64,000 nucleotides of DNA from Candidatus Phosphitivorax anaerolimi (GTDB lineage: Bacteria > Desulfobacterota > Desulfomonilia > UBA1062). The stretch's first letter is position 1. Each line of letters starts with the position of its first letter. Below, one piece after another: positions 4,542-42,615 of the stretch. Where the stretch lies: positions 30,223 to 94,222 of the forward strand of contig MPOS01000011.1 of NCBI GenBank assembly GCA_001896555.1, read 5' to 3'. The position numbers were made by a program, and so were the translations under genes. The notes beneath the pieces were generated by a model. It saw only the letters and a program-made list of their open reading frames with translations, made no database searches and was not told the DNA's origin.

Positions 4542-4542
4542 T

Positions 4543-23188: not shown

Positions 23189-23209
23189 GAGTAATGATGA
23201 TTCATTATT
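23189..23209. promoter_or_regulatory. Second copy of the palindromic operator AGTAATGATGATTCATTATTA, 130 bp upstream of the MMPL exporter gene.
   Basis: Exact 21/21 identity to 20489-20509, and exactly 2700 bp away. Confidence 0.5.
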
Positions 23210-23340
23210 ATTGATTGGGCTGTGATCTCGGGAACATAAGCCTGATACGCCGTGGCGGGAGAGGTTTCATCGCTGCCGGTGGCGGCTGCATGGGCACGGT
23301 AGGTACCGGGATGAATCCGGCTTGAACAAAGAGGGGGTAT

Positions 23341-25770: not shown

Positions 25771-26554
25771 AAGCCTGGCAGGATTGTTTCTTGGGCTGAT
25801 GGCGGCCGTCGCCGTGGTTCTGACGGCTCAGGGTCCGGCTGTGGGCGCGGAGATGAGCGCGTATGACATCGTGAAGAAGGCCGAAGACCTTCTCGACCAG
25901 GCCAAGGACAGCAAGGCCGACATGATCATGACCCTCGTGAACGACAAGGGCCAGAAGCGCGAGAGGAAGCTCAGCGCATTTGTAAAGAAATACGGGGAGA
26001 ACAGCTCGAAATCCATCCTGTTCTTCAACTCTCCGGCAGACGTCAAGGGCACAAGCTTTCTGGTGTGGACCGAAAACAAGGAAGACAAGCAGTGGCTCTA
26101 CCTCCCGGCTCTGCAGCGGGTGCGGCAGATCAGCGCGAGCGGCAGGGGAGAGAGCTTCATGGGCACCGAGCTCACCTTCTTCGACATGGGCAGCCACGAC
26201 ATCGACGAATACACCTTCAAAACGATCAAGGAAGAGGATGTCGACGGCGAGATGTGCTACATGATCGAGGCCCTGCCCAGGAAGGTGGAGTTCTACAGCA
26301 AAATCGATCTCTGGATCCGCAAAGACAGCTTCATCCCCGCAAAGGCGGATTTCTACGACCCCAAGGGCCGGTACGAGAAACAGGGCAGGTTCTCTCAGGT
26401 CAAGAACATCCAGAACATCAACACCCCCACACGCATCGAGATGCACAATGTGCAGAACGGCAGGACGACCATCATCGAGCTGAGCGATGTGGTGTATGAC
26501 TCCGGGCTGAAAGATGATATATTCACCGAGAGATACATGAAAAGGGGAAAATGA
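25760..26554 (+). CDS. Outer membrane lipoprotein-sorting (LolA-like) protein associated with MMPL exporters.
   Basis: Signal peptide. Segment KLSAFVKKYGENSSKSILFFNSPADVKGTSFLVWTEN...QWLYLPALQRVRQIS is typical of the LolA-like partner of MMPL/DUF1302 clusters. Confidence 0.7.
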   Translation: MTCRSLAGLFLGLMAAVAVVLTAQGPAVGAEMSAYDIVKKAEDLLDQAKDSKADMIMTLVNDKGQKRERKLSAFVKKYGENSSKSILFFNSPADVKGTSFLVWTENKEDKQWLYLPALQRVRQISASGRGESFMGTELTFFDMGSHDIDEYTFKTIKEEDVDGEMCYMIEALPRKVEFYSKIDLWIRKDSFIPAKADFYDPKGRYEKQGRFSQVKNIQNINTPTRIEMHNVQNGRTTIIELSDVVYDSGLKDDIFTERYMKRGK

Positions 26555-26813
26555 GATCGGAATGCCGGACCGCGAACACAGCAGAACCGTTCATTTCTGC
26601 AAGACTCGATTGCTTGGGCTCCCTCTCCCCTTGCAGGAGATGGATAGGGTGAGGTGGAAATAAAGTCACAGCTTCCACGCCTTCTCTCTGCCCCTCTGGG
26701 TACCCGCTTCAGCGGTTCGTGCGGAGGGGGCCCTGAGGGATTGCATGGTGGAGAATGCAACAGCCCCGAGTTTTGCGGAAGAAGGTGAGAGAACACACAA
26801 GAGCCGCGCACAA

Positions 26814-27164
26814 ATGCCGAAAACTCACGTCAGGCGCACCAGAGACCTCAGGAAGCGCTCCACCGACACAGAGCAGCCTCTCCGGCGGCACCTGCTGGCA
26901 AGGCAGATGTCAGGCCAGAAATTCAGTCGCCGGCAGACAGCCGGCGATTATATTGTCGATTTTCTCTGCTGTGAGAAAAGGGTGATCATCGAGCTCTATG
27001 GAGGCCAGCACGGCATTCACCAGGAAAAGGACATTATGCACGATTCATGGCTCAAAAAGCAGGGCCTTCGAGCTCTCCGGTTCAGGAACAACGAGGTTTT
27101 TTCCAATACTGACGGGGCACTGCAGACTGTCCCGGATGCATGCTCAGGGGGGGACGGGGCTTGA
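26814..27164 (+). CDS. DUF559 (Vsr-like endonuclease fold) protein.
   Basis: Segment LRKRSTDTEQPLRRHLLARQMSGQKFSRRQTAGDYIVDFLCCEKRVIIELYGGQH...LRFRNNEV matches the DUF559 consensus. I trimmed to the MPKTH start. Confidence 0.7.
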   Translation: MPKTHVRRTRDLRKRSTDTEQPLRRHLLARQMSGQKFSRRQTAGDYIVDFLCCEKRVIIELYGGQHGIHQEKDIMHDSWLKKQGLRALRFRNNEVFSNTDGALQTVPDACSGGDGA

Positions 27165-27298
27165 TCTTCAATTTCAACTCCCCCCACCCTGTCCCGCCTC
27201 CACTCAAGGAGGAGGGCGCGTGCACCCGTCGCGCCCAGCAGGGCTTCGCAGTGGGAGAGGGTCGGCGCTCCATTCCCCGGCATGCCGCTCAACTGCTG

Positions 27299-28792
27299 AT
27301 GCTGCTGGCTGCAGCGTTCATCCCGGCCTTCTTTTCCCCGCTCTACGCTTATGAGTACGATGGCGAGAACCTGGACATCTCCCTGAGCGGCTATCTCGAG
27401 GCCGGCGCCGTCTACGTACTGGACGACGAGTCGCCGGACGAGGATCCCACCACCGAGCTTGGCCTCGAGCTCAAGGCGGACTTTTCGACCGTGTCCACGC
27501 TCAAGATTTTTCTCCAGGCGGTGAACGACGGGACAGTCATCGACCCCCAAAACGGTCTGCTGTTCAATGAATTCGACAAGGTCTATCAGGACAAGAACCC
27601 GTACGTCGATATCGACGAGGCCTATGTGGACCTGTACTCGTCCTTCGTTGATCTGCGCATCGGCATCCAGAAGTTCGCCTGGGGCAGACTCGACGAGATC
27701 AACCCCACCGACAACCTCAACCCCGAGGACTTCAGGCATGGCATCACGGCCGACGAGATCGACCGGAAGATCGGCGTGCCCGCTCTCCGGGCCAACACGT
27801 ATTCGGATATCGTCAATGTGGAGCTGGCCTGGATACCCTGGTTTGTCCCCTATCGTCTGCCCACACCCGAGGAACGGTGGTTTCCGGGCGTGCTTCAGCC
27901 TCCTTCGTCTATCGACACCGGCACGTCGGCCGGCGCCATCCCGGTGGCCGCCCGATACAAGGATGTCGACGTCCCCGAGTTCAGCCTCGACGACTCCCAG
28001 GCAGGGATCCGACTGTCGAAATATGTCGGAGGCTGGGATCTCTCCGTAAGCTATTTCAGGGGCTACGATACCGTACCGCTCACCGATGTGGTCTCCGACC
28101 TTACCGTGGACCTTATCGACCCGCTGTCCCTCTCGTACGACCTTGCCCTAGACCTCACCTATCAACCGGCTCTCCATCGGATCCAAGTCTTCGGCTTCGA
28201 CTTCGCCACCACGGTGAGCTCGTTCACCATCCGCGGCGAGTTCGCTTATTTCAAGGGCAGGCATTACAACCGCAAGCTCGAGTCCGTTCTCAGGCAGGAG
28301 ATCACCCCGGCCCGCCAGCAGGCGATCATCGACGAGTTCATGCAGAACTATCTCGACTCCGGGGGGGCGGCGTCGCGGCAGACCTTCCGCATCGACCCGG
28401 AGGTGAACATCCAGATGGATTCCATGAAGTACGGGCTCGGCATCGACTATATCTACGGCGACACGAGCGTAAGCCTGCAGATGATCCAGGAGCTCATACC
28501 GGACTACGACAGGGACAGGCCGGTCTACTTCAACAAGGAGGGCCTGGATACCTTCCTCACCCTTCAGCTCAAGCAGTTCTTCCTCCAGAACACCATGGAG
28601 CTCGACCTGCGCGCCGCGTACGGCATCGAGTTTCAGGAGTATCTCGTGAAGCCCTCGCTGAAGTACAATTTCACCAACACGCTGCAGGGATCTATCGGGG
28701 TCGTGGTCCTGGGCGGCAAATACGACGACTCGCTCCTGGGTCAGTTCGACGACAACGACCAGATCTATGCGTTGCTGAAGTGCTTTTTCTGA
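27299..28792 (+). CDS. Outer-membrane protein, DUF1302-like, partner of the MMPL and LolA-like genes.
   Basis: Signal peptide MLLAAAFIPAFFSPLYA. Alternating beta-strand-like pattern. C-terminal KCFF ending in Phe. Genomic context with the MMPL and LolA-like genes. Confidence 0.5.
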   Translation: MLLAAAFIPAFFSPLYAYEYDGENLDISLSGYLEAGAVYVLDDESPDEDPTTELGLELKADFSTVSTLKIFLQAVNDGTVIDPQNGLLFNEFDKVYQDKNPYVDIDEAYVDLYSSFVDLRIGIQKFAWGRLDEINPTDNLNPEDFRHGITADEIDRKIGVPALRANTYSDIVNVELAWIPWFVPYRLPTPEERWFPGVLQPPSSIDTGTSAGAIPVAARYKDVDVPEFSLDDSQAGIRLSKYVGGWDLSVSYFRGYDTVPLTDVVSDLTVDLIDPLSLSYDLALDLTYQPALHRIQVFGFDFATTVSSFTIRGEFAYFKGRHYNRKLESVLRQEITPARQQAIIDEFMQNYLDSGGAASRQTFRIDPEVNIQMDSMKYGLGIDYIYGDTSVSLQMIQELIPDYDRDRPVYFNKEGLDTFLTLQLKQFFLQNTMELDLRAAYGIEFQEYLVKPSLKYNFTNTLQGSIGVVVLGGKYDDSLLGQFDDNDQIYALLKCFF

Positions 28793-29037: not shown

Positions 29038-31851
29038 TCAGCTCAAAGAGAGGAGATACGATCTCAGGTTCGCCTTTTCTTTCTTCAGCCCCAGCTTGTC
29101 TCTGATGTTGTTCCGGTGGAACTCTACGGCACGCTTGGAAATGTTGAGCAACTCCGAGATTTCCTTGGTCGACTTGCCCTCGCGCACCAGGTTCGCCACC
29201 TGGATCTCGGTGGGGGTGAGATTCAGATATTGGGCGGAGAGCTTCTGGAGGAAGGGAGAGATGATGTCGCCCAGGCTCGATTCCAGGAGCTGCACGTAGG
29301 CGGCCTGCCTGTCGTCGAGCGAGCATGCCTTGAGCTTTTCCAGATAGGGCAGGGCCAGCTCCTTGATGTTGGACAGGACCTTTTCCTCGAGCTCCTTCTT
29401 GTCCTGCTCGCCGCGCTTGAGCAGCACCTTGAGCGCGGTGTTGGCCTCCTCGAGATTCAGCGACTTGAGCTGAAGCTCCTCTTCCTTGCGCATGAGCGTC
29501 TGCTCGGCCAGCTTGCGCTCCTCGATCTCCCGCTTCAGCCTGATGTTCGCCCGGACGAGCTCCTCGGTCCGCTCCTCGACCCGTTGCTCGAGGCTCTCGT
29601 AGGCCTTCTGCAGCTTCTGCTCGGTGAGCTTGCGCTCGGTGATGTCCACGAACGAGCACAGCAGGCAGATGGGCCTGCCGTTCTCGTCCTTCACCATGCT
29701 CGCGGAGAGCTGCACCGCGATGGGCGTCCTGTTTTTCTTGACCGCGATGATCTCCCCGAACCAGGTGCCCTTTGCGAGCACGGTCTGGAGAATAGCGTCC
29801 GCGTCTTCCCGGGACTGGGCGAAGGTGAGCGCCGACTTTCCCAGGACCTCGGACGGATCCTTGCCGCCCCACATGCGGAGAAAGGCATCGTTGACATAGG
29901 TGATGTTGCCCTGAAGATCGCCGATAGCGATGCCGTTGATGGATGACGAGATGGCAAAGTCCTTGACCCTGAGCTCCTCTTCCATCTTCTTGCGCTCGGT
30001 GATGTCCACGAACGAGTCCATCACGCAGATGGGCTCGCCCCTGTCGTTGTACACCATGCTTGCCGAGAGGTGGACCGTGATCGGCGAGCCGTCGCTCCGG
30101 AAGCCGGACACCTCCCCTGACCAGCTTCCCTTCTCCACCACGGCCTGGAATATCTCCAGGGCTTCTTCTTCCGACTGCGCCAGATCGAGAACCGACCTGC
30201 CCAGTACCTCGGAGGGGTCTTCAGCACCCCACATGGCCAGCGCCGCGTCGTTGACGTAAGTGATCTTCCCTTCCAGATCACAGAAACCGATGCCGTCGAT
30301 GGACGAGGCGATGGCGTTTTCCCTGACCCTGAGCTCCTCTTCCATCTTCTTGCGCTCGGTGATGTCAACGAACGAGTCCATCATGCAGATGGGCTCGCCT
30401 TTGTCGTTTTTCACCAGGCTTGCCGAGAGCAGGACCGTAATCGGCGAGCCGTCCTTGCGGAAGCCGGACACCTCGCCCGTCCAGCTTCCCTTTTCCACGA
30501 TGGCCTGGAAGATCTCCAGGGCCTCCTGCTCGGATTGCGCGAGGTCCAGCGCAGACCTTCCCAGCACATCGGAGAGATCGCTGTCTCCCCACATCTTCAG
30601 GGCCGCATCGTTCACATAGGTGATTCTGCCTTCCAGATCGGAAATTCCGATGCCGTTGATGGACGAGGCGATGGCGTATTCTTTTATCTGTAGATCCTCC
30701 TCCATCTTCTTGCGCTCAGTGATGTCCACGAACGAGTCCATCATGCAGATGGGCTCGCCTTTGTCGTTTTTCACCAGGCTTGCCGAGAGCAGGACTGTAA
30801 TCGGCGAGCCGTCCTTGCGGAAGCCGGACACCTCGCCGGTCCACCCGCCTTTCTCCAGAACGGCCTGATAGATTTCTATGGCCTCTTCCTCCGACTGGGC
30901 TAGACTGAGCGCCGAGGTGCCGATGACCTCGGACGCATCCGGGGCCCCCCACATCTTCAGGGCCGCGTCGTTGACGTAGATAATGTTGCCCTCCAGGTCC
31001 GATATGCCGATGCCGTTGATGGACGACGCTAGGGCATTGTTCCTGATGCGCAGCTCCTCCTCCATCTTCTTGCGGTCAGTGATGTCCACGAACGAGCACA
31101 TGATGCAGATGGGCTCGCCTTTGTCGTTTTTCACCAGGCTTGCCGAGATGAGCACGGTGAAAGGATCACCGACTTTCCTCTTTGCGTTGACCTCTCCCTC
31201 CCACCTGCCGCTGGTGCGGATGGTGTCGATAATATCGAGGATCTCCTCCTGTGACTGGGCGAAAATCATCGCAGGTTTTCCCAGGACCTCATCGGGCTTT
31301 CCGGCACCCCACATCTTCAGGGCCGAATCGTTTGCATAGGTGATGACGCCGTCGAGGTCGGCGATGACGATGCCGTTGATGGACGAGGCCAGGGCGCTTT
31401 CCTTGACCCGCATCTCTTCTTCCATTTTCTTGCGGTCGGTGATGTCCACGAATGAGCACATCATGCACACGGGCTCGTTCGATTCATTGCGGACCAGGCT
31501 GGCCGAGAGCAGGACGGTGACCGGCGAGCCGTTTTTCCGCCGGCCGTTGATCTCTCCCGTCCAGTCGCCTTTGCACAGCACGGTCTCCATGATCTCCAGG
31601 GCCTCCTGCTCGGACTCGGCGAACACGGTCACCGGCTTGCCGATGATCTCCGCTGGGTCGGTCCCGCCCCACATCATGACGGCTGCCTGGTTCACATAGG
31701 TGATGGTGCCCTGCAGGTCGCCGATCGCAATGCCGTTGATCGACGATGCGATGGCGAACTCCTTGATCCGCAGCTCTTCCTGGATATACCTGAGCTCGTC
31801 GATCTTGTCTTTCAGGGGCTTGACTTCCTCGCTCATGCGGCTCGGCGGCAT
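29038..31851 (-). CDS. LuxR-family transcriptional regulator with eight tandem PAS domains and a C-terminal GerE-type HTH.
   Basis: C-terminal TPTEIQVANLVREGKSTKEISELLNISKRAVEFHRNNIR. Eight repeats of about 120 aa, each ending DITDRKKMEEELR/DITERKKMEE. Confidence 0.85.
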   Translation of the reverse strand: MPPSRMSEEVKPLKDKIDELRYIQEELRIKEFAIASSINGIAIGDLQGTITYVNQAAVMMWGGTDPAEIIGKPVTVFAESEQEALEIMETVLCKGDWTGEINGRRKNGSPVTVLLSASLVRNESNEPVCMMCSFVDITDRKKMEEEMRVKESALASSINGIVIADLDGVITYANDSALKMWGAGKPDEVLGKPAMIFAQSQEEILDIIDTIRTSGRWEGEVNAKRKVGDPFTVLISASLVKNDKGEPICIMCSFVDITDRKKMEEELRIRNNALASSINGIGISDLEGNIIYVNDAALKMWGAPDASEVIGTSALSLAQSEEEAIEIYQAVLEKGGWTGEVSGFRKDGSPITVLLSASLVKNDKGEPICMMDSFVDITERKKMEEDLQIKEYAIASSINGIGISDLEGRITYVNDAALKMWGDSDLSDVLGRSALDLAQSEQEALEIFQAIVEKGSWTGEVSGFRKDGSPITVLLSASLVKNDKGEPICMMDSFVDITERKKMEEELRVRENAIASSIDGIGFCDLEGKITYVNDAALAMWGAEDPSEVLGRSVLDLAQSEEEALEIFQAVVEKGSWSGEVSGFRSDGSPITVHLSASMVYNDRGEPICVMDSFVDITERKKMEEELRVKDFAISSSINGIAIGDLQGNITYVNDAFLRMWGGKDPSEVLGKSALTFAQSREDADAILQTVLAKGTWFGEIIAVKKNRTPIAVQLSASMVKDENGRPICLLCSFVDITERKLTEQKLQKAYESLEQRVEERTEELVRANIRLKREIEERKLAEQTLMRKEEELQLKSLNLEEANTALKVLLKRGEQDKKELEEKVLSNIKELALPYLEKLKACSLDDRQAAYVQLLESSLGDIISPFLQKLSAQYLNLTPTEIQVANLVREGKSTKEISELLNISKRAVEFHRNNIRDKLGLKKEKANLRSYLLSLS
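29560..31720. repeat. Tandem array of about 360-bp direct repeats (about 6-7 units) encoding the PAS modules of the regulator. Units 30360-30720 and 30720-31080 are near-identical.
   Basis: Out-of-frame ORFs recur at 30260, 30620, 30980 and 31340 with near-identical translations. The protein segment GEVSGFRKDGSPITVLLSASLVKNDKGEPICMMDSFVDITERKKMEE is repeated. Confidence 0.8.
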
Positions 31852-31978: not shown

Positions 31979-32959
31979 TCAGAACGGGATCACCACGCCG
32001 ATGGAAAAGGTTGATATGATCTCCTGCTCGAACACACCAATCTTGACGGGATCTTCAGGGTTATACGAGGACATGTCGTCGCCCTCGTAATAGTCGGGGT
32101 CTCTGGTTTTGTACGACACCTCCAGCACGGGGTCGAAGTTGTCCAGATCATACATGGCCGCGCCGGCCTCCGCCACGAGTCTGATATTGTTCTTGAACGG
32201 GATATAGATCCCGGCAAAGACCTGCAGGAGCTGCCCGAACACGGTTTCGGAATCATCGAGCCTGATCCGGTATTCAGACCCCTGGTAAGACTGCTCTCTG
32301 ATCGCGTCGCTTTCCACCTCGCGCGTCGCCATGCAGAAACCCAGGCCCCCTCCGATATAGGGGTTGATCCTTTTTTTGTCTCCTCCGTGGTGCTCGTAGA
32401 CGATGTTGAATGAAAGGGGCACGATGTAGAGCGTGGTGTCGAGGTCGACTCTCCGGAGCAGCTCGGCGCTGGTGATGATGGCCTCTCCTTCACCGCGGTA
32501 GCTGCTGCCCAGGTTTTTGTCGTTGATGTCCTCTGCGGTGACGCCCGGCTCGTTGGAGCCGGGGAAGGTCTCTTCCGCCTCCATGATGATCGACTCCCGG
32601 TTGCTGCCCGTGTCCCACTCCCCCCTGAGCATGATCACCTCGAGCGAGGCGAGGAACGAGATCTTTTCCTTGATCTTTTTTTTCGCACCCAGCGAGACGG
32701 ACAGTCCGTAGTCGAGGAAATCACGGAAGTCGCTGTCGTACACCGCGAATGCGCCGCCGGATTTTATCGAGTAGGAGAAGGTCTGGTCGCGGGGAAACTG
32801 CTGTTTTCTGGGCGCCGACACCAGGATCTCTTCGTCCTGGGTGAGGGCTGCCTTCATGGCGGGAGACTCGGGATTTGCCGTGCGTGAGAGGTTTTCGGAA
32901 CTCCAGACAACGAGCGGAAACGCCAGGATAAAAACAGTGTATGCAGCTATACGGCTCAT
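31979..32959 (-). CDS. Hypothetical outer-membrane beta-barrel protein.
   Basis: Signal peptide MSRIAAYTVFILAFPLVVWSS. C-terminal FSIGVVIPF ending in Phe. Alternating hydrophobic pattern. Confidence 0.5.
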   Translation of the reverse strand: MSRIAAYTVFILAFPLVVWSSENLSRTANPESPAMKAALTQDEEILVSAPRKQQFPRDQTFSYSIKSGGAFAVYDSDFRDFLDYGLSVSLGAKKKIKEKISFLASLEVIMLRGEWDTGSNRESIIMEAEETFPGSNEPGVTAEDINDKNLGSSYRGEGEAIITSAELLRRVDLDTTLYIVPLSFNIVYEHHGGDKKRINPYIGGGLGFCMATREVESDAIREQSYQGSEYRIRLDDSETVFGQLLQVFAGIYIPFKNNIRLVAEAGAAMYDLDNFDPVLEVSYKTRDPDYYEGDDMSSYNPEDPVKIGVFEQEIISTFSIGVVIPF

Positions 32960-33382
32960 TATAACGATCCTTAAGGCCCTTTCTTTCATATGTGCTGCCT
33001 GGAAAAAACATCCTCACCCCCGGCTGCCGCAAGGGGATAACATGTGTTCGATTCACGAGTCATGCAAGAATTATTCCCTGCCATCTATTTCGCAGGAAGC
33101 GGATAAGACTTGACATTTTATCCATGAATCTTTCATGATCCGCAGCCTGAAAGAAAATAATTTCTCCTAAAGGGCAAAACCTTGCATATTCACAAGTGAC
33201 TGCCCTTGTGATCATATCTGTTGCAATGGCGGGGCAAAGATGATTAAATAAAACAGCCATAATGAGGTCCGCTCCCGTGATTGCTGCGTTTGTCTGTTAT
33301 GCAATGGATACTGATCCAGGTCTCATCTGCAGTCATCTCTGCCGAGCAGGACGGCGAGAACCTGTGTAGGAGGTTAGAACAT

Positions 33383-34354
33383 ATGAAGGGACACCGGATA
33401 TTCCCTCTTGTCGCGGCAATCTTCTTTCTGGCATGTGCGTGCGTTTCGTGTGAAAGCGGTTCAAGCAGCAGCGACCCCGGAGAGGTCCTGCCTCCGAGAC
33501 CATGGGATAACCCTATGCCCGATCCTTCAGACGATACGACATCCTCTAGCATGGAATTGATAGGGTCTTGGGTTGGGTATTTTCTTGCCGGTGACGACGA
33601 TGTATTTGACGATGTATTTAATTATAGCAACGAAAACGATAATCCCCTGGAATTTGATTTTGATGATGATGATCTTTTTGCAATAGGGATCATTACCCGG
33701 GAAAAAGAAGCAAGATTTATTGGAGATACGTCGCAGTTCGTATGTCCTGAAGGTTCATTGGGAGCAAGTAATATTGCTGGCATTAGAACTATATTCGGAG
33801 GATACTTTGACTATTATACGTGGAACACTCAGGGGCTCGAACCATACACCGCCAATGTGGAGCCTATCTCCATCTATGGAAATGCACTCTTTTCCATATA
33901 CTTTCTTGACGGCTTCTATTGGTATACTGACACACCGGAAGCCGACAGGGATTTCTGGCAATTCCAGTTCTTCAACTACACCACCACCGGGATATCCGCG
34001 GATATTGAAAAGATCGCGGGCCAGTGGAAGATCAGCGATGCGTTCTGGAAGGGCAACACCCTGACTTTCACCATAGAGCCCAACGAAGACCGTAGGAGCG
34101 CTACCATAACCGGCACCGACACTCATACCCCTCAAAATACCTTCGAGGGAACCATCATCGAGATACACTATGACGACACCGACTTGTACGATGTCTCGCT
34201 CAAGCTCAACGAGGAATTCGACCTGGAAGGCCTGGCGACCTATGTGTCCAGCTACGATAACCAGGGTATACACGCCGAGTCTTCCCTCGCCATCGGCGTA
34301 TCCGACGGGCAACGCATGGTCACCGGCCTGGCGGCGCCGGTGCCCGAGGAATGA
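33383..34354 (+). CDS. Hypothetical lipoprotein with an acidic low-complexity segment.
   Basis: RBS TAGGAGG 8 nt upstream. Signal peptide MKGHRIFPLVAAIFFLACACVSC. Acidic run DDDVFDDVFNYSNENDNPLEFDFDDDDLF. Confidence 0.55.
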   Translation: MKGHRIFPLVAAIFFLACACVSCESGSSSSDPGEVLPPRPWDNPMPDPSDDTTSSSMELIGSWVGYFLAGDDDVFDDVFNYSNENDNPLEFDFDDDDLFAIGIITREKEARFIGDTSQFVCPEGSLGASNIAGIRTIFGGYFDYYTWNTQGLEPYTANVEPISIYGNALFSIYFLDGFYWYTDTPEADRDFWQFQFFNYTTTGISADIEKIAGQWKISDAFWKGNTLTFTIEPNEDRRSATITGTDTHTPQNTFEGTIIEIHYDDTDLYDVSLKLNEEFDLEGLATYVSSYDNQGIHAESSLAIGVSDGQRMVTGLAAPVPEE

Positions 34355-34810
34355 CGCGCGGCAAGTGCTTCATTCACCGAGGATGCTTGCTATGTCTTTC
34401 TGTTGGTAATTATTTTAAGATATTGCCGGATGCTCTCTCGATCATGCCTCCGGTAGACCGTTTCGTCCCATCATTCTCTTCTGGGTGATGGATCTTCGCT
34501 CCCATCGACCAGGGAGGTCAGCACACCCCCTTTGAACAGTACGCCATCCGAGCGGCATGCCGGGGCTCCTCTCCTCGATCCGCTCAAGCGGATACCCCGG
34601 AGAGAGGGGCAGGGAGAGTTGTTTGCAAACCAGGGGTCTGCAAACCTGTCCCCCTACCGGAGAAACGGCGTATTTCCCGTGTTTCTGCCAGGAGGTACGA
34701 CCCCGGAATGGATGAAAATCTTTTCATTAATTCATGGAAAAATGTTTCTCTTTTTCCTTTCGTGTTTGAGAGCATAGATTATAACTAATTGAATTATAGA
34801 TAATTTTATA

Positions 34811-34826
34811 TGGCATGCTTATTGCT
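34811..34826 (+). promoter_or_regulatory. Sigma-54 (-24/-12) promoter TGGCAT-N5-TTGCT, upstream of the 34900 gene.
   Basis: TGGCATgcttaTTGCT matches the RpoN consensus TGGCAC-N5-TTGCW with GG to GC spacing of exactly 10 nt. It is preceded by an AT-rich tract. Confidence 0.55.
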
Positions 34827-34899
34827 GAATGGGTAGCCCATGGAGACCAGAGAAAGAGGCGTGCATCCAGAGCATATCTTATTCAATTCGGAGAGATCA

Positions 34900-35478
34900 A
34901 TGCGAGGTCGGATGTTTGTAGCGATTCTTCTTGCCCTGTGTCTGTTCTGTTCCCCCGCCCACGCCTGGATGTGGGAAGTCGGCGACGAGGTTCTGGCCGA
35001 GATAACCGGCGAAGGCTATTCCAGTTTTACCCTCGAAAACGAAGTCGCCCGTGCATACTTCAACATCACCACCACCACCTACACCGAGATCGATTCCCTG
35101 AAAATGGGTTACTACGACAACGGCACCGGATACGGGTGGGACGAAAACTGGGAAGGCGTATCCCTGGGTTCTGCCTCCGAGAGTCTCGTGTGCAAGGGCG
35201 TGTACATCGAGGCGGGTTTTTCCAACATGACAGACCCTGCCACCCGGCAACTCAATTTCGTCAGGGTGGGCACACCGTCCATGACAGGCCCCATCAGCGC
35301 AAACTTTATTTCGTTCAGCGGCCGCATCGAGAACCCCACGGACGGCGTTCTCGTGGACGGCAGCCGGCTGAATCTCGGCCAGAGAACGATCTACTGCAAC
35401 AATTCGGAGTTTTCCGTAACCCTGGACAGGACCTCCGGCTGGTGGTTCCACTGGGACAATGCAACGATTACCCCGTGA
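34900..35478 (+). CDS. Secreted hypothetical protein (193 aa) carrying the cluster-specific mature-N-terminal motif.
   Basis: Signal peptide MRGRMFVAILLALCLFCSPAHA, then WMWEVGDEVLAEITGEGYS. RBS GGAGAG. Confidence 0.6.
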   Translation: MRGRMFVAILLALCLFCSPAHAWMWEVGDEVLAEITGEGYSSFTLENEVARAYFNITTTTYTEIDSLKMGYYDNGTGYGWDENWEGVSLGSASESLVCKGVYIEAGFSNMTDPATRQLNFVRVGTPSMTGPISANFISFSGRIENPTDGVLVDGSRLNLGQRTIYCNNSEFSVTLDRTSGWWFHWDNATITP

Positions 35479-35737
35479 TATGAGCAGAGAGGAAAACTGA
35501 CAGGGAGTATGCATTCGGTTGTTTTGAATTGAAGTAGGGAGATCGAGTTCAAGGAGCATCTCCTTAGCCCCTGTGGTTTTGGTTATACAAAGTACCGTGA
35601 AAAGGGGGTGATGTGCTGGCAAACGTGAAACAGGAGAAATCGAAAAGCGTTACACCGTTAGGCATGAGTAGTTGGGTAAAAAACTAAAAAGCAAGTAACA
35701 GGCACCACAAAAAATAAATTTTTGGAGGCATTAAGTT

Positions 35738-36784
35738 ATGAAGAGAGTATTGACGTTTTTGGCTATCATGTTGCTGCCATTGTCCGTAATGGCAATGACA
35801 CCGGTTTCCGACCAGACCCTCTCCGATGTTACCGGCCAGGCCGGAGTCAACATCAATGCTGACCTTATGATGGACATCGCCATCGGCACCATGGCATGGG
35901 GCGATGCCGACGGTATCACTGCAAGCGGCAGCTGGCCTACCTGGGGCACCACTGCTGACGGCGGCTACGTGGGAGTCACCGGGTTCGACATTGACGGCCT
36001 GAGAATCAAGGCCCGCGAAACCGACACCTATCACGAATATGCGGCACCTGCACAGCTGAAGCCCATCACCATCGACGTTGCCACCGATCCAAACATCTAC
36101 GACGGAGCGACCTTTGTGCGGTTCGGCCTCGGCTCCCTCCAGATCACCATGGGCGCCCTCGACTTCGACGTGAGGCTCGGGACTGACGCGGCAACCCTCG
36201 CGGCTTCCGGCAACCTGCTCGGTGTTGTGAGCATCGGCGCCATGGGCATCTACATCGATCCCAAGAGCTATGTTGACATCTTCTCCGACGGCACCTGCGG
36301 CGTGAACATAGCCATGGACATCGAGATCGATCAGTTCAACATCGGCTACGTGTCCTGGGGCGACACCGACGGCGTGACCAACACAGGCATGGGCGCGATG
36401 CCCTGGATGGCTGCGGCTAGCGCCGGTTATGTCGGACTTGCCAACCTCGAGATCGGCGGCCCGATCACCGTCAGCGGTCAGCTGGCAATCGATGTCAACA
36501 CCGCCTATGCCGGCATCTACTCCCACGGCATAGTCGGGACCGATGCGGGCGCAGCCCCTGTGAGCGTTGTTCACATCCAGTTCGGCTCCGACGTCTACTC
36601 GGATCCCACTCTGGGCGCTGCTGACCTCTTCTCCGTACTCGTCGGCCCGATCACTGCCGAGGTGAAACTCGACGGCGTGGCAGCCCTGGACGGCGCCAAT
36701 GCCGGCACGCTGGGCGACATCTACATCAGCAGCTTCGGCCTCGACATCTATGGCGGCAGCTGGGTGGACATCTGGGCCCACTAA
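35738..36784 (+). CDS. Secreted protein, paralog A (348 aa). It carries the N-terminal LSDVTGQAGV motif, internally duplicated WGDxDG modules and the C-terminal SWVDIWAH.
   Basis: Signal peptide MKRVLTFLAIMLLPLSVMA, mature N-terminus MTPVSDQTLSDVTGQAGVNIN. The duplication WGDADGIT...GGYVGVTGFDIDG versus WGDTDGVT...AGYVGLANLEIGG. Confidence 0.7.
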   Translation: MKRVLTFLAIMLLPLSVMAMTPVSDQTLSDVTGQAGVNINADLMMDIAIGTMAWGDADGITASGSWPTWGTTADGGYVGVTGFDIDGLRIKARETDTYHEYAAPAQLKPITIDVATDPNIYDGATFVRFGLGSLQITMGALDFDVRLGTDAATLAASGNLLGVVSIGAMGIYIDPKSYVDIFSDGTCGVNIAMDIEIDQFNIGYVSWGDTDGVTNTGMGAMPWMAAASAGYVGLANLEIGGPITVSGQLAIDVNTAYAGIYSHGIVGTDAGAAPVSVVHIQFGSDVYSDPTLGAADLFSVLVGPITAEVKLDGVAALDGANAGTLGDIYISSFGLDIYGGSWVDIWAH

Positions 36785-36898: not shown

Positions 36899-37924
36899 AT
36901 GAAGATAATGAAAAGCGCATCACTGGCCGTGCTGATCGTTGCGTTCCCGCTCTCCATGATGGCCATGACGCCGGTGCGGGATCACGATCTCTCCCAGGTG
37001 ATCGGCCAGGCCGGTGTGAGCATCAATACCGACATCATGATGAACATCGCCATCGACACCCTGGCATGGGGTGATTACGACGGCATTTTCGAAGGCGGCC
37101 ATCCCTCCTGGGGCACCACCGCTGACGGCGGCTATGTGGGACTGGCCGGGTTCGACGTCATCGGGCTCAGGATCAAGGCCCGCGAAAACGACACCTTCGG
37201 CGGGTATTCCGCTGCAGCGGACTTCAAGCCGATCACCATCGACGTCGCCTCCGACCCGACCTACAGCCTCTACAGCGGGTTCACCTTCGTGCGGTTCGGC
37301 CTCGGCTCCCTCCAGATCACCGTGGACCAGATGGACTTCGCGGTCTTTCTTGCAGCCCCCGGCGCCCCGGGCCAGGTGCTCGGCACGGTAAATCTCGGCG
37401 CGCTCGCCATGTACGTCAACCCGTGGAGCTACGTAGACATCTATAACAGCAGGCCGGGCAACCAGTGCGGGGTTTTCGTGACCATGAGCGTCGTGATCGA
37501 CCAGCTCGATATCGGCTATCTGTCGTGGGGCGACATTGACGGCGTGGCCAATGAAGGCATCGGCGCGATGAGCTGGATGTCAGATGGCGCGCAGGGAGCC
37601 GGCTATGTCGGGCTCTCCAACCTGCGAGTGTGGGGGCCCATCATCATGCAGGGAACGGTCGCCATCGATGTGACGACCTCGTATGAAGGCATCTACGCCC
37701 ACGGCTCGTTTGGGGACCCGGGCTGGGCCCCTGTGAGCGTTGTGCACATCGGGTTTCCCCAGGTATTCAGCCTGGATGTGGCGGGACCCATCACCGCCGA
37801 TGTGAAGCTGGACAGCTTCGCTTCCCTGAACAGTCCTGATGCCGGCACACTGGGCAACATCTATATCTCGGGACTCGGCATCGATATCCTGAACCGCAGC
37901 TGGGTGGACATCTGGGCGCACTGA
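36899..37924 (+). CDS. Secreted protein, paralog B (341 aa). A tandem duplicate of paralog A.
   Basis: Signal peptide, then MTPVRDHDLSQVIGQAGVSIN. Same WGDxDG modules and the identical C-terminus SWVDIWAH. Confidence 0.7.
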   Translation: MKIMKSASLAVLIVAFPLSMMAMTPVRDHDLSQVIGQAGVSINTDIMMNIAIDTLAWGDYDGIFEGGHPSWGTTADGGYVGLAGFDVIGLRIKARENDTFGGYSAAADFKPITIDVASDPTYSLYSGFTFVRFGLGSLQITVDQMDFAVFLAAPGAPGQVLGTVNLGALAMYVNPWSYVDIYNSRPGNQCGVFVTMSVVIDQLDIGYLSWGDIDGVANEGIGAMSWMSDGAQGAGYVGLSNLRVWGPIIMQGTVAIDVTTSYEGIYAHGSFGDPGWAPVSVVHIGFPQVFSLDVAGPITADVKLDSFASLNSPDAGTLGNIYISGLGIDILNRSWVDIWAH

Positions 37925-38114
37925 GCCCTCTCCGAGAGTCAAGCCCCGAGGCGCGGCACTGGTATAGATTCTTGAGGATGAAGATCAGGCTCTTGAGGCA
38001 GGGAAATTTTTCTTGCCTGTCTCAAGATAATGAGTGAATAGATCGAAGAGACAGTATGTGCAGAAAACAAGTGCAGGTTCGTATGGAGCGGCGGGAATGA
38101 AAGGAGATAAAGGT

Positions 38115-38999
38115 ATGAGCCCTGGCAGGAAAGGATACCGTCTTTTTTCCCGGCATTTCGCACTGTTTGCTCTTTTCGTTTTCTTTCTCCCCATTTCCGC
38201 TCCGGCTCAGATGAGCCGGCTGAGCGATGACGAGCTCTCCGAGGTGAGCGCCCGCTCGGGCATCACCTATGTGATCGGCGATTCACAGCTGCGCGTCTAC
38301 GCCGACTCATACCGGGTCTCCGACACAGATCACACCCCGCGCCACTGGATCGAGCTCAACGATTTCACCGTCGATGACGGCCAGGGCGGCTACTTCTCCA
38401 TGAACACCCCCGCTGACTACGACGACTTCAACACCCTCGACATCGGCACCACCGGCGAGGGGGATACGTATATTTTCATGAATCTTTCCACTCACGTAGA
38501 GCCGAGGACCTACACTGTCGGGAACTTCGTCTTCTGCGACCAGGACCTGGGCGGAATCAGGCTGGAAAACCTCAGGAAGGGGACTTCGGACACGTTTATC
38601 ATAGGCCCCCACGGCGATGGGATGTCCGGCATCGACATCGAGTATCAGACAGAGATCACCATCGACTCTCTGCAGTACACCTACAATACCCAGCCCGAAT
38701 CGCTCAACCTCACCGGCATCCGATTTGCCGGCAGCGCGCTCGGTGCGCCGGAAGATCCGTCATCCTGGATCTTTTCGGGAAAGTTCAAGTTCGGCGATCT
38801 TGCGAACAACAGGCCTGTGACCATTGATGTCGGTACCTATGATGACGGTGCTGTCACGTCGACCTCGGTGTTCTACAACGCACCCATGTCCGGCAGCATC
38901 CGGGTGGAAAACGTGGATTTCGGAGGGAACCAGTTCGGCCCCTGCGCCATCGACGGCATAACCGTTCATCATCTCGGCATCCAGATACCCGGTAATTGA
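38115..38999 (+). CDS. Secreted hypothetical protein with a related mature-N-terminal motif (protein C).
   Basis: Signal peptide MSPGRKGYRLFSRHFALFALFVFFLPISAPA, then QMSRLSDDELSEVSARSGITYVIGD. RBS AAAGGAGATAAAGG. The stop overlaps the next gene. Confidence 0.6.
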   Translation: MSPGRKGYRLFSRHFALFALFVFFLPISAPAQMSRLSDDELSEVSARSGITYVIGDSQLRVYADSYRVSDTDHTPRHWIELNDFTVDDGQGGYFSMNTPADYDDFNTLDIGTTGEGDTYIFMNLSTHVEPRTYTVGNFVFCDQDLGGIRLENLRKGTSDTFIIGPHGDGMSGIDIEYQTEITIDSLQYTYNTQPESLNLTGIRFAGSALGAPEDPSSWIFSGKFKFGDLANNRPVTIDVGTYDDGAVTSTSVFYNAPMSGSIRVENVDFGGNQFGPCAIDGITVHHLGIQIPGN

Positions 39000-39808
39000 C
39001 AGGGGCGGGCAAATCTGGGAGAATCCGGACTATGGAGGTTATCGCGGGCTTCCTCATCGTTCTGGCTATACTTACCACGCTCCATCCCGTCAGTGACGTA
39101 TCGGAAAGCGAACTGACGTTGTACCCGGAAGTGCCTGGAATTCAGCATGTTTTGAGATATGAGGTCAAGCCGTACTCTGTCATGAAGGACGAGAACATCG
39201 TCAAGCAGCAGTTCGACTACAGTTGCGGTTCTGCGGCGCTGGCAACCCTCCTGAACTACTACCTGGGCGAGAACTTCACCGAGGAGCAGGTGATCCAGGG
39301 GCTGATGGAGTATGGCGACATCAAGCAGCTGGAGGAGAGGCGCGCGTTCTCTCTGCTGGATATGAAGCGGTTTGTTACGGTTCTCGGCTACCAGGGCACG
39401 GGCTACACTGCGGAGCTCGAAGATCTGAAGAAGCTCGACAAGCCATGCATCGTTCCGATCGAGTTTTTCGGGTACAGGCACTTCGTGGTTTACCGTGGCA
39501 TATATGGCGATCATGTGTTCTTCGCCGACCCCTTCATGGGCAACATCAGCTTCACCTTATCGGAATTTGAAGAAATGTGGCACAGAAATATCGTGTTTAT
39601 CGTGACCGACGGCGGAGTCACCATGGATGCGCTTCTCCTCAAGGAGGAGGATTTGCGGCTCGTGGAGATCATCAGGACGAGCGATGCTCTTCCCGAGCAT
39701 GCACGTTCGACCATTCTGATCGAGCAGCAGAAGTTCATGGAATCCATCGGGAGGATCGACGAGGACGCGAACAGGAGATACCAGTTCAAGAGCATCAATG
39801 TCTATTGA
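38996..39808 (+). CDS. Membrane-anchored peptidase C39-family cysteine protease, standalone and predicted periplasm-facing.
   Basis: One N-terminal TM helix (EVIAGFLIVLAILTTL). Catalytic Cys in QQFDYSCGSAALATLLNYYLG. His and Asp in GYRHFVVYRGIYGDHVFFADPFMG. The TTG start overlaps the upstream TGA; an alternative ATG at 39032 has RBS GGGAGA. Confidence 0.7.
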   Translation: MTGAGKSGRIRTMEVIAGFLIVLAILTTLHPVSDVSESELTLYPEVPGIQHVLRYEVKPYSVMKDENIVKQQFDYSCGSAALATLLNYYLGENFTEEQVIQGLMEYGDIKQLEERRAFSLLDMKRFVTVLGYQGTGYTAELEDLKKLDKPCIVPIEFFGYRHFVVYRGIYGDHVFFADPFMGNISFTLSEFEEMWHRNIVFIVTDGGVTMDALLLKEEDLRLVEIIRTSDALPEHARSTILIEQQKFMESIGRIDEDANRRYQFKSINVY

Positions 39809-39841: not shown

Positions 39842-40915
39842 TTGACAGGTTACAGCAAGAGGAGACCATACGTGAAGAGACTCGCTGTTTTGATTGCTGT
39901 GTTTTTTTGCTGCCTTGTTTGTGCTGCCGACGGGAGCGCCCAGGAGCAGGAAACAGGAAGAGAGGAGCTTCTGAACCGTATCGAGGAGCTGGAGAAACGG
40001 ATCAATGAATTGACGGAAGAGAGCCGCGCCAGAAGAAGACTGGAGATCACCGAGCAGGAGAAGCAGGAGAAGGAGAAGGAAGTGCTCGAAGCAGTGGGCA
40101 GAGAATACTCTCTCGAACCAAAGCGCACGCTCGGGCTCGACTATACGCTGTCGTACAAGTATACCCCAAGCGAGAGGATTCTCAATCAGCTCCTGATCGA
40201 ACGCCAGATAGATCACGAGATCAAGCACACCATCACTACATCGTACAGCATCCTCGACAATCTGACCTTCAGCGCGGGCATTCCTTTCGTATACCGGTAC
40301 AACGAAGTGGGCACGGACAAAGAGCTGGATGAAACCGACATCGGTGATATTACCCTGGGATTTTTGATCCAGCCCATCAAGTCGAAGGCCGGCGATGTGC
40401 GGACAATTCTGGGCCTGAGCGCCTCATTGCCCACGGGCAGGAGCCCCTTCAAGATCAACCCCGAGACAGAGCTCTCGACCGGCAACGGTGTGTATGACTT
40501 TTCGCTCACCGCAAGCTTCAGCAAGCAGATCGATCCTGTTGTGGCCTTCTGGAACCTCGGCTACACCTACCGCATGGATGCCACTGGTCTGGATTACAGA
40601 GTTATGGAGCAACTAATATTGGAAGAGGTGGAGACAGGGAACTCCATCTCCGCGGGGGCAGGGATCGGCTATGCACTTTCTTACAAAGTATCGGTGAACT
40701 CGTCTTTCAGCTACACCTATCATTTCAGCTCTGCATATAAGTATACGGGTGCAGCTCAGGACGTTGAGTCCGGAGACAGATCTGAGGCCACGTTCGGCGT
40801 GGGCTTGGGCTGGAAAGCAACAAACAAGACCACCCTTTCTTTCAGTCTCGGGTACAGTCTCACGGGGTCGGGCTTCACGTTTACGGTCAGGGCCCCGTTC
40901 AGCTTTGTCCTATGA
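39842..40915 (+). CDS. Outer-membrane beta-barrel protein with an N-terminal coiled-coil segment.
   Basis: Signal peptide LAVLIAVFFCCLVCAADG. Coiled coil EELLNRIEELEKRINELTEESRARRRLEITEQEKQEKEKE. Beta-strand-rich remainder ending FSFVL. Confidence 0.55.
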   Translation: MTGYSKRRPYVKRLAVLIAVFFCCLVCAADGSAQEQETGREELLNRIEELEKRINELTEESRARRRLEITEQEKQEKEKEVLEAVGREYSLEPKRTLGLDYTLSYKYTPSERILNQLLIERQIDHEIKHTITTSYSILDNLTFSAGIPFVYRYNEVGTDKELDETDIGDITLGFLIQPIKSKAGDVRTILGLSASLPTGRSPFKINPETELSTGNGVYDFSLTASFSKQIDPVVAFWNLGYTYRMDATGLDYRVMEQLILEEVETGNSISAGAGIGYALSYKVSVNSSFSYTYHFSSAYKYTGAAQDVESGDRSEATFGVGLGWKATNKTTLSFSLGYSLTGSGFTFTVRAPFSFVL

Positions 40916-40929
40916 GGGGAGAGTGTATT

Positions 40930-42615
40930 ATGCTATTGAGGAGGTTTCCGGCTATTTGCCTGCTGCTGATCGCGGGTTTGATCAGCCCCATGCCGGCGCG
41001 TGCCGGGCTTTTCGAGCAGCTCGCGGTCTGCCCCGCGGCCTCGTCCCTGGGCAGCGCGGTGACCGCCTATCCCGAGGGGTGCGGCGGGCTGGCCGTGCAT
41101 TTCAACCCGGCCCATCTGGCGACCTATGAGGCCAGCCGCTTCGACAATGCGCTGATATTCACCATAAACAAGCGGGAGGCAACGTACACCCAGGGGATCG
41201 ACCCGGAAACCGGCGAGCTCTGGGCGCCATTCGGCGGCTGGTTCAACGACGGCAAAGACCCTCTGGACGGTGCACATGCCGAGCAGCAGAGCGGGTATAT
41301 GGTGATCCCCATCGTCGACTACGAGATCCCCTACCTGGCAGGTGCGGGCATGGGGATCATCTACAAGCCGCCCGAGCCCGAGTCGCGGCTCACCTTCGGA
41401 TTCGGACAGTATGCCCCCTTTGCGGTGGGGCTGAAGAATCACAGCGGAGACCCGTTCAGCTTCATGGGCAGGAAGGCCTTCTTCCTCCGCATGGTCCTGG
41501 CGGCCCCGGCGGTTGCATATAAGCTCACCGACACCATATCCATAGGCGCCTCGGTAGGGATCGGGGTCACCCTGTTCAGCTTCCAGACGAACATGAGAAC
41601 GCCCAACACCATGGTCGCACTGACCGGCGCCCTGGGTGAGGCGACCGAAGGTCTGGAGATCCCGGTGATATCAGAGCTGACTTTCCCGCCGCCCTGGTTC
41701 GGCGGCGGAATGCACCCCTATGAGAAATCGGGCGAGCTTGAGCTCCTGGTGGAGGACTACTTCACCACCTCGTACAACCTGGGCTTTCTGTGGGAGCCCA
41801 CGCCCTGGTTTGCCTTCGGGGCCTGTTACCAGAGCGAGTCCGAGACCACTATGGAAGGCGACTACAAGTTTTCCTACGAACGTAGATTTCAGAACACGGT
41901 CGCCTGGCTGGGGCGTTCTCCCCTGACGATCATAACAGCCGCCATGTTCGACCTGCCCTACCAGGCAGTGCCCCATCAGAAGGGCACCGCCACCGTCAGC
42001 ATGACCTGGCCCGCCCGCCTTCAGCTCGGCGTCAAACTGAAGCCCATAAAACAGCTCGTGCTCACCTGCGACGCCCACTGGACCGACTGGGAGGCATGGC
42101 CTACTCTCGAGATACAGTTCGACCAGAAGATTCAGCTTCTGAGATTCGCCCGGATGCTCGGGTATATGAACAGTCCCAAGGCCATGGTTTTGAATCTGGG
42201 TTTTGAGAACACCTGGCATTTCAGCTACGGAATCGAGATACGCCCCATCAAGCGGCTCGCCCTGCGCTTCGGGTATGAGCCCAGACCCACTTCCGTGCAG
42301 GACGACCTCTTCGGCCCTGTGCCCATGTCGGATATGGATATCTATTCTGTGGGGATCGGGTTTACCATCGAGGACCATCCCAAGCCCAAGCCCGGCAACT
42401 TCCATGAACTGCTCAAACAGATTCAGCATCCGACCGCAATCGACCTCAATGTGACGCTTGTGCAGCTCAAAGACAAGACGGTGGGGTTCAACGAAAGCAC
42501 GAATATGAACTCGATAGATTTCACCGACATTGTCTACAACCCGTATGCGGGCCTTGAGTACGAGCAGGAGATGTCCGTATGGGTGATATCGCTGAATCAG
42601 GTGTTCAAGTGGTGA
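40930..42615 (+). CDS. FadL/TodX-family outer-membrane hydrophobic-compound channel.
   Basis: Signal peptide MLLRRFPAICLLLIAGLISPMPARA. FadL-like N-terminus GLFEQLAVCPAASSLGSAVTAYPEGCGGLAVHFNPAHLA containing the NPA motif. RBS GAGGGGAGAG. Confidence 0.65.
   Translation: MLLRRFPAICLLLIAGLISPMPARAGLFEQLAVCPAASSLGSAVTAYPEGCGGLAVHFNPAHLATYEASRFDNALIFTINKREATYTQGIDPETGELWAPFGGWFNDGKDPLDGAHAEQQSGYMVIPIVDYEIPYLAGAGMGIIYKPPEPESRLTFGFGQYAPFAVGLKNHSGDPFSFMGRKAFFLRMVLAAPAVAYKLTDTISIGASVGIGVTLFSFQTNMRTPNTMVALTGALGEATEGLEIPVISELTFPPPWFGGGMHPYEKSGELELLVEDYFTTSYNLGFLWEPTPWFAFGACYQSESETTMEGDYKFSYERRFQNTVAWLGRSPLTIITAAMFDLPYQAVPHQKGTATVSMTWPARLQLGVKLKPIKQLVLTCDAHWTDWEAWPTLEIQFDQKIQLLRFARMLGYMNSPKAMVLNLGFENTWHFSYGIEIRPIKRLALRFGYEPRPTSVQDDLFGPVPMSDMDIYSVGIGFTIEDHPKPKPGNFHELLKQIQHPTAIDLNVTLVQLKDKTVGFNESTNMNSIDFTDIVYNPYAGLEYEQEMSVWVISLNQVFKW

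Follow-up and report, generated by a model that had tools for sequence, protein, structure and literature searches.

Which type of promoter drives a cluster of genes for secreted proteins and their export in Candidatus Phosphitivorax anaerolimi, and what activates it? The question arises from a 64,000-nt stretch of this genome (assembly GCA_001896555.1, contig MPOS01000011.1, positions 30,223 to 94,222; hereafter the window, with coordinates counted from its first letter), for which an initial annotation had proposed a sigma-54 (RpoN) promoter in front of the cluster. The proposal was based on TGGCAT-N5-TTGCT, a match to the -24/-12 consensus with exact spacing, and both the coordinates and the sequence of this match proved to be exact. 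Taking the comparison with related loci into account, we consider positions 34811-34826 (plus strand) to be probably a functional sigma-54 promoter (rough probability 0.85).

The element consists of TGGCAT (34811-34816), the spacer GCTTA (34817-34821) and TTGCT (34822-34826), with GG at 34812-34813 and GC at 34824-34825 enclosing 10 nt (GG-N10-GC). All specified positions (11/11) of the degenerate consensus TGGCAY-N5-TTGCW are matched by TGGCATGCTTATTGCT, the sixth base being T and not the commoner C. The site lies outside coding sequence, in a 545-nt gap between 34354 and 34900, and on the same strand as the downstream genes. This gap is bordered on the left by a 357-aa open reading frame (ORF; 33281-34354) and on the right by the first gene of the co-directional cluster (gene 1). 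Also, the AT-rich tract that had been noted in front of the site was recovered (34774-34810; 37 nt, 89% A+T), and the motif ends 73 nt before the Shine-Dalgarno (SD)-led ATG at 34900, in agreement with the earlier estimate of about 75 bp to the first gene.

Within the window, the consensus was found once without mismatch (0.14 expected) and four times with one mismatch (3.5 expected). By chance statistics, the single exact match is suggestive but not significant alone, and at least one exact match was present in 13 of 100 shuffled windows. Scored with an approximate position weight matrix (PWM), with weights after the Barrios 1999 consensus/compilation, 34811-34826 ranked first of about 128,000 window positions (18.0 bits, vs 14.8 bits for the runner-up). 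As to its uniqueness, the site is the sole exact consensus match and the top score, but two weaker conserved sites are present as well. As the bare match is not significant, the case for a promoter rests on the comparison across loci.

For this comparison, 54 loci from species-representative genomes were retrieved with a profile of gene 1 homologues. A TGGCATGYTTATTGCT-type site was detected at the corresponding position in 16 syntenic loci (L001, L003-L015, L017, and L018) from other metagenome-assembled genomes (MAGs) with 48-92% protein identity, and in each of them it gave the single best PWM score of the whole locus. The MAGs with the site, for instance GCA_018433085.1 and GCA_018433775.1, derive from related, uncultured bacteria of the sulfate-reducer type. 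GG and GC were invariant, the spacing GG-N10-GC was constant, and the distance from the site to the SD-led start was 82-89 nt wherever the protein match started at residue 1. In an alignment of 15 upstream regions, TGGCA and TTGC were invariant and the few substitutions fell into the spacer; the 20-nt flanks of the conserved blocks were unconserved, their sequences being unrelated. Reading frames across the motif were closed by stop codons in several loci. Invariant -24/-12 contact bases combined with a variable spacer form the pattern of constraint that would be expected of sigma-54 contacts. It is because of this conservation in 16 orthologous loci, at matching gene distance, that the site stands above chance.

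The remaining loci gave a mixed picture. L016, which is syntenic, had no such site upstream and carried a LuxR-type gene there instead. For L002, the contig stops at the gene and is uninformative on the site. Strong sites also preceded the gene in three more distant clusters with 37-41% identity (L024, L031, and L043), and most of the 'orphan' gene 1 homologues in Desulfobacterales were without a site. A metagenome search with the 330-aa protein encoded at 18954-19946 gave no matches other than contigs of 99-100% identity (among them Ga0302248_1000749 and UPXM01000689), which were therefore of no use for assessing conservation.

Upstream repeats and candidate activators

Two inverted repeats are located upstream of the AT-rich tract. 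The first, TGAAAATCTTTTCA (34713-34726; core GAAA-N4-TTTC), is presumed to be a binding site of a bacterial enhancer-binding protein (bEBP); the second, GGAAAAATGTTTCT (34736-34749), has the family consensus GGAAA-N4-TTTCC. Both are conserved in orthologous loci and are spaced 23 bp centre to centre. Counted back from TGGCAT, the core of the first repeat begins at exactly 97 bp, both in the window and in 10 of 12 scanned loci; L004 lacks an exact core at this position, and in L015 the distance is 112 bp. For the second repeat, the corresponding distance is 74 bp in the window and in nearly all loci that possess an exact core, and 87 bp in L015. These distances are rigid although the spacer between the repeats and the AT-rich block has diverged. 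In total, GAAA-N4-TTTC occurs four times in the window (0.83 expected), two of the copies being the repeats described here. Two inverted repeats at fixed positions are the expected form of enhancer-binding-protein sites, and we regard them as candidates for this function. To our knowledge, the repeat motif (GGAAA-N4-TTTCC / GAAAA-N2-TTTTC) is not assignable to any characterised bEBP.

The AT-rich block ATAGATTATAACTAATTGAATTATAGATAATTTTATA (34774-34810), which includes two ATAGAT repeats and many invariant alignment columns, represents the second conserved island of the upstream alignment, where it reads ATAGATnATAACnnATTGAAnTATAGA. On its minus strand it contains a core resembling the site of integration host factor (IHF), ATTCAATTAGTTA (34782-34794), with one mismatch to the IHF consensus WATCAANNNNTTR. 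Since this one-mismatch pattern is no commoner in the window than by chance (20 matches vs 23 expected), it is the position and the conservation of the core that point to IHF. Tandem activator sites, a bend site and a -24/-12 element would together make up a textbook enhancer-dependent layout. For Desulfovibrionales, the sigma-54 promoter consensus is given as tGGcacg/tTGCt, and many such promoters are located less than 100 nt from the nearest enhancer-binding-protein site (PMC4641369). The reading of the initial annotation is supported by comparative sequence evidence in the invariant GG and GC, and the conserved tandem repeats would fit the enhancer-binding-protein control that it put forward.

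On this basis, the following mechanism can be proposed. Sigma-54 RNA polymerase would bind to GG (34812-34813) and GC (34824-34825) in a closed complex that is unable to open alone. The repeats at 34713-34726 and 34736-34749 would be occupied by an AAA+ ATPase of the enhancer-binding type, whose gene would lie in another part of the genome. Bending of the AT-rich block at 34774-34810, probably by IHF, would then let the activator meet the polymerase, and ATP hydrolysis would open the promoter.

That no bEBP gene is encoded in the window, as had been stated before, was borne out: the bEBP signatures GAFTGA, Walker-A, and ESELFGH were absent from all frames of the window, and neither a Sigma54_activat domain nor rpoN was found among the 40 window ORFs scanned against Pfam. 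In the related loci (flanks up to 10 kb on each side, contig permitting), the RpoN-box pattern had no match, and rpoN together with a cognate bEBP was absent from the window and from the flanks of most of these loci. As bEBP genes were present near only 2 of the 54 loci (L024 and L043), the activator is not identifiable from the neighbourhood. In L024, from a Desulfobacteraceae MAG, a 469-aa bEBP with Sigma54_activat and HTH_8 domains (19061-20470, minus strand) is encoded 55 nt upstream of the PD40-C39-FilC-FilD genes of a homologous cluster; there, the region upstream of gene 1 contains repeated TTGCCATTAT boxes in place of GAAA-N4-TTTC. The other case is L043 (Desulfosarcina alkanivorans), where genes for a response-regulator bEBP and for a PAS hybrid kinase (1330-5172, minus strand) are located about 7 kb upstream of the cluster.

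Only one regulator is encoded in conserved synteny: a protein of 937 aa (29038-31851, minus strand) that combines six PAS domains with a LuxR/GerE helix-turn-helix. Its gene lies beside the cluster, with 60-87% identity in those loci whose contig reaches it, and in more distant loci the protein is better conserved than the products of the structural genes. Because this PAS-LuxR protein has no AAA+ domain, it cannot itself activate sigma-54; possibly, it binds some conserved element. We also noted a histidine kinase (49-1797) and a hybrid receiver-PAS-kinase (1794-4541) at the edge of the window, for which no partner response regulator was visible in the window.

Two further sites of the sigma-54 type were detected in the window. 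A second, weaker site, GGGAATAATTCTTGCA (33063-33078, minus strand; PWM rank 8), is located 74 nt before the ATG (32989) of a divergent 336-aa outer-membrane-like gene (31979-32989). Nine loci retain it in the form nGGAAT-N5-TTGCW, and most of them also have conserved tandem boxes upstream. In the window, the tandem boxes GCAAggTTTTCC...GAGAAAttaTTTTC lie within 33150-33190, and the boxes include GAAAATAATTTC (33153-33164), the third GAAA-N4-TTTC copy. The PAS-LuxR gene follows 127 nt downstream of the 336-aa gene on the same strand and may be co-transcribed with it. A third site, AGGAATAGAAATTGCA (20445-20460, plus strand; GGAAT-N5-TTGCA, PWM rank 7), precedes a cluster (20597-28792) comprising an 815-aa gene and genes for MMPL, LolA-like/DUF1329, and DUF1302 proteins. 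Upstream of it are GGAAAATCTTTTC (20270-20282), the fourth GAAA-N4-TTTC copy, and then GGTAAAAATTTACAC (20291-20305); these tandem repeats can also be written GGAAAATCTTTTC / GGTAAAAATTTAC (20270-20305). Three homologous loci (L058, L060, and L061) share the third site; L060 and L061 also show the repeats, and in L058 these appear as a GGAAAATCTTTTTCC match. A conserved TAATGAnnATTCA element was observed about 30 nt downstream of this site.

At both additional GG-N10-GC sites, the tandem repeats are found at variable distances of roughly 75-175 bp. The same type of repeat at different distances fits activation by DNA looping, and the occurrence of three GG-N10-GC sites that share it suggests one activator and a small envelope regulon.

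Two other PWM matches were set aside. The runner-up, TGGCGTGTAATTTGCA (20014-20029, minus strand), overlaps a perfect sigma-70 promoter (-35 TTGACA at 20051-20056, -10 TATAAT at 20029-20034, 17-nt spacer), so the PWM score alone is insufficient here. Comparison of the window with four homologous loci showed TTGACA-17-TATAAT to be fully conserved; the GG-N10-GC arrangement is lost in L059 and present in the other four sequences, one of which has 40% protein identity. The two may be overlapping promoters or a coincidence; the match is ambiguous and probably not sigma-54-dependent. The match TGGCTATCATGTTGCT at 35760 falls within the part of the next gene that codes for the signal peptide and was dismissed as coding sequence; a similar match was noted in L008, just inside the gene 2 homologue.

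Two possible in-frame starts of gene 1

The distance to the first gene given in the initial annotation corresponds to the SD-led ATG at 34900 (hereafter ATG2; GGAGAG at 34890-34895). The frame probably opens already at an ATG at 34840-34842 (ATG1), and not only at ATG2. ATG1 is in frame with gene 1, lies 13 nt after TTGCT and falls within the predicted transcription start region (34836-34842, plus strand), with pyrimidines before it. In 16 of 17 loci, an in-frame ATG follows TTGCT at a distance of 12-14 nt; in the remaining one, L011, a GTG is located at 12 nt and an ATG at 15 nt. In all 17 loci, the upstream start codon was in frame with gene 1, and in 16 the frame was free of stops down to ATG2. 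The segment between ATG1 and ATG2 ranged from 36 to 69 nt among loci and was always a multiple of three, with an unconserved peptide. Between the two codons, the 17 loci contained a single stop in the frame of gene 1 vs 25 and 19 stops in the other frames. The exception is L015 (9770-9835), where a 20-codon upstream frame ends with a TGA and the main ATG ATG follows directly; the arrangement resembles stop-start coupling more than a loss of upstream translation.

Hence, the distance from the promoter to ATG1 is fixed and that from ATG1 to ATG2 drifts. The fixed spacing, the open frame, and the bias in stop codons speak for translation of ATG1 and for a link between this codon and the transcription start. 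Purine-rich stretches before ATG1 were inconsistent among loci. Taking GC as -13/-12, ATG1 would be situated at nominal +3 to +5. Transcription would begin at about 34836-34840, at or a few bases before the in-frame ATG, and the mRNA would probably be leaderless or carry a leader of a few bases, with a second, SD-led start at 34900. Our literature search found no description of a conserved sigma-54-driven leaderless transcript.

That the 5′-AUG at 34840 is the genuine start of a leaderless or near-leaderless transcript and that, in addition, a single bEBP coordinates an envelope regulon of three promoters is a tentative combined proposal, for which we assume rather less than even odds. If it holds, the secreted protein would gain a variable extension of 12-23 residues ahead of its signal peptide, beside the product of the second, SD-led start. 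The product of ATG1 would begin with METRERG and that of ATG2 with MRGRMF. The GGAAA-N4-TTTCC regulon of Desulfomonilia-like bacteria would then comprise the cluster that begins with gene 1, related to the Fil and Fap fibre systems, the outer-membrane gene (possibly with the PAS-LuxR gene downstream) and the MMPL/LolA-like/DUF1302 cluster. An ATG fixed at the predicted start also provides a natural case for asking whether sigma-54 promoters feed leaderless translation.

Extent of the transcription unit and alternative readings

From ATG2 onward, gene 1 (34900-35478, plus strand) encodes a secreted 192-aa protein of an unannotated family, with a signal peptide and without any Pfam or NCBIfam match. 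Its AlphaFold model is all-beta (pLDDT 88.6) and had no match among solved structures. The closest database proteins come, by source name, from Desulfomonilia-class MAGs.

On the same strand, gene 1 is followed by genes for three DUF6160/FilA-like secreted proteins (35738-36784, 36899-37924, and 38034-38999; Pfam DUF6160 E = 1e-11 to 4e-13), a C39 peptidase resembling FilB/FapD (38996-39808), a FilC/FapF-like outer-membrane protein (39842-40915), a FilD/FadL-family barrel (40912-42615), and a protein with PD40 (TolB-like) beta-propeller repeats (42930-44441), the last conserved gene of the cluster; the latter four were assigned by Pfam and NCBIfam, the PD40 protein also by synteny. The NCBIfam scores were 45 and 38.5 bits for FilA (cut-off 220), 207 for FilB (475), 152 for FilC (630), 279 for FilD (970), 114.9 for FapD (330), and 71.2 for FapF (700). 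No cluster protein had an NCBIfam match to FapC, FapB, or FapE. None of the scores comes near its curated cut-off, which makes the cluster a distant, homologous relative of Fil and Fap and a member of neither: Fil proteins were not recovered at cut-off level, nor were FapD and FapF equivalogs together with a FapC-type repeat subunit. The co-linear order typical of Fil (subunits, C39 peptidase, FilC-type barrel, FadL-type barrel) is present in the window and in related loci, and the gene order is kept across L002-L018 where the contig extends that far.

Between gene 1 and the DUF6160 proteins there is a weak N-terminal likeness, the signal peptide and an SD-x-x-LS-x-VTG motif being all that they have in common. 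In gene 1 and the three DUF6160 proteins, we observed this motif after the signal peptide as M-x-x-x-SD-E/Q-x-LS-x-VTG-E/Q-G/A. Its resemblance to a double-glycine leader makes it a possible target of the co-encoded periplasmic C39 peptidase.

Does the promoter serve this whole cluster, as had been proposed? It does precede the cluster, but its reach may be limited by a terminator-like hairpin after gene 1. The strongest of the alternatives, and still rather unlikely, is that the promoter is real but serves mainly gene 1, with most transcripts ending at the hairpin and the later genes being expressed by read-through or from a promoter of their own. This is suggested by a branched stem-loop ending in TTTT (35493-35582, plus strand; outer stem AAAACTGACAGGG/CCCCTGTGGTTTT, inner hairpin GGGAGAT..ATCTCC) that is conserved in all compared loci, by the 259-nt gap before gene 2 and by an invariant box, AAAGG(G/A)GGTGATGC (35600-35616), downstream of the hairpin. 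The box resembles a full-length SD sequence without a suitably spaced start codon and is nearly complementary to the 3′ end of 16S rRNA. Each locus sequence folds alike on its own. However, the terminator scan did not call the stem-loop, the folding energy of the intergenic region was not unusual (z = 0.15), and RNAalifold recovered only the invariant outer stem (six pairs) without compensatory changes; the evidence for the hairpin is thus its conservation and the folds of single sequences. In L009, visual inspection shows GGAAGAC/GTCTTC in place of the inner hairpin GGGAGAT/ATCTCC. The Rfam scan of the whole window at gathering thresholds gave no match. Moreover, the interval from gene 1 to gene 2 showed no recognisable conserved promoter consensus, and the gene order and short downstream gaps fit one transcription unit.

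We therefore keep to the reading of a sigma-54 promoter for the cluster, in which the hairpin may act like a terminator or attenuator and gene 1 would be expressed above the subunit and export genes. A first gene expressed more strongly than subunit and export genes through attenuation is a common arrangement in fibre operons. The transcript would encode the small secreted all-beta protein, and part of it would probably read through the hairpin into the DUF6160 and export genes, whose C39 peptidase, FapF-like, and FadL-like products would form the export part of a distant Fil/Fap-type surface-fibre system.

Several of the above observations weigh against a sigma-54 promoter. These comprise the chance statistics and the approximate weights of the PWM, the syntenic locus L016 without a site, the lack of enrichment of the one-mismatch IHF pattern, the absence of rpoN and a cognate bEBP from the window and most neighbourhoods, and a PAS-LuxR protein as the only syntenic regulator. 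Also, ATG1 is slightly beyond the canonical start, and an SD-dependent ATG1 would need a transcript that starts upstream of the motif.

The last point is the best argument for an improbable second alternative, according to which the 16-mer is an operator or an element of the 5′ untranslated region, transcription starts from a sigma-70 promoter in the AT-rich block, and the PAS-LuxR protein binds the GAAA-N4-TTTC repeats. The conserved PAS-LuxR gene beside the cluster would suit this arrangement, as would the smaller LuxR-type genes that stand beside related genes in L016 and L059; the runner-up match on a perfect sigma-70 promoter illustrates, in addition, that PWM matches alone mislead. Yet a simple promoter scan detected no sigma-70-type -35/-10 pair on the plus strand upstream of gene 1, and the positions that never vary coincide exactly with the bases contacted by sigma-54, GG-N10-GC being fixed and the spacer variable. 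The inconsistent purine-rich stretches before ATG1 speak against an SD-dependent start there, and repeats at differing distances from three sites suit a looping enhancer and not a class I/II sigma-70 activator. Finally, a chance match without function, which the frequency of exact matches in shuffled windows might suggest, has a negligible probability given the conservation in 16 loci down to 48% identity, as the top match in each, and the fixed distances to the gene and the upstream repeats.

Relation to known systems

The mechanism envisaged for the promoter at 34811-34826 appears to be that of an ordinary enhancer-dependent sigma-54 promoter. Well-known IHF-assisted promoters of this type are Pu with XylR (Pseudomonas putida), nifH with NifA (Klebsiella), and glnHp2 with NtrC (Escherichia coli). 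As in these promoters, tandem sites, here putative activator sites, are located about 70-100 bp upstream of the -24 element, an AT-rich, putative IHF-type bend site lies in between, the core conforms to TGGCAY-N5-TTGCW, and the spacing shows face-of-helix rigidity (here fixed at 97 and 74 bp). In contrast to them, the activator is not encoded nearby, the repeat motif and the target genes are different, and a start codon is probably placed at the transcription start.

The biological logic may be closer to that of the pilA promoters dependent on sigma-54 and PilR in Pseudomonas aeruginosa, Myxococcus xanthus, and Geobacter sulfurreducens. By analogy, a -24/-12 element would again stand directly before a small, abundantly needed, fibre-related gene, a bEBP would act in trans, and the target would be a cell-surface appendage. 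Unlike the pilin genes, the system here is Fil/Fap-like and not a type IV pilus, and there is neither a PilR-type site nor adjacent PilS/PilR genes. Sigma-54 typically governs components of the cell exterior, including pili and flagella (PMC3162934), a view that the present locus would modestly extend.

In phylogenetic terms, the sigma-54 regulome of Desulfovibrio vulgaris Hildenborough offers a comparison from a related lineage of deltaproteobacterial type, and the consensus quoted above matches the element described here (PMC4641369). Most of the D. vulgaris promoters without a predicted enhancer-binding-protein site belong to cell-exterior functions (PMC4641369). The window, in contrast, comes from another class (Desulfomonilia-like MAGs), and its fibre operon and upstream motif do not appear in the passages of that study consulted.

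The downstream genes resemble the fil genes of Acinetobacter baumannii (FilA-F) and the fap genes of Pseudomonas (FapA-F) in their DUF6160/FilA-like subunits, the periplasmic C39 peptidase (FilB/FapD), the FilC/FapF-type barrel, and the FilD barrel of the FadL family. They differ from both in an extra first gene of an unannotated family, in the PD40 protein and in their low NCBIfam scores. No regulator is encoded in the fap operon, whose control is counted among the open questions (PMC6173800), and the fil genes have been described as a putative operon only (PMC4751259). In the literature searched for DUF6160, FilA-D, and FapF/FapD in connection with sigma-54, no report on regulation was found. 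With the regulation of Fil/Fap-type systems essentially undescribed in this literature, the promoter and its enhancer provide a testable handle, also on when uncultured Desulfomonilia-like bacteria of sludge and sediments build their surface structure. The repeat motif can be used as a query in complete genomes for the activator and the remaining regulon. Compared with the systems described so far, the novelty lies in the target (a fibre-export cluster distantly related to Fil and Fap), in the uncultured Desulfomonilia-like lineage, in the repeat motif, and in a possible leaderless start.

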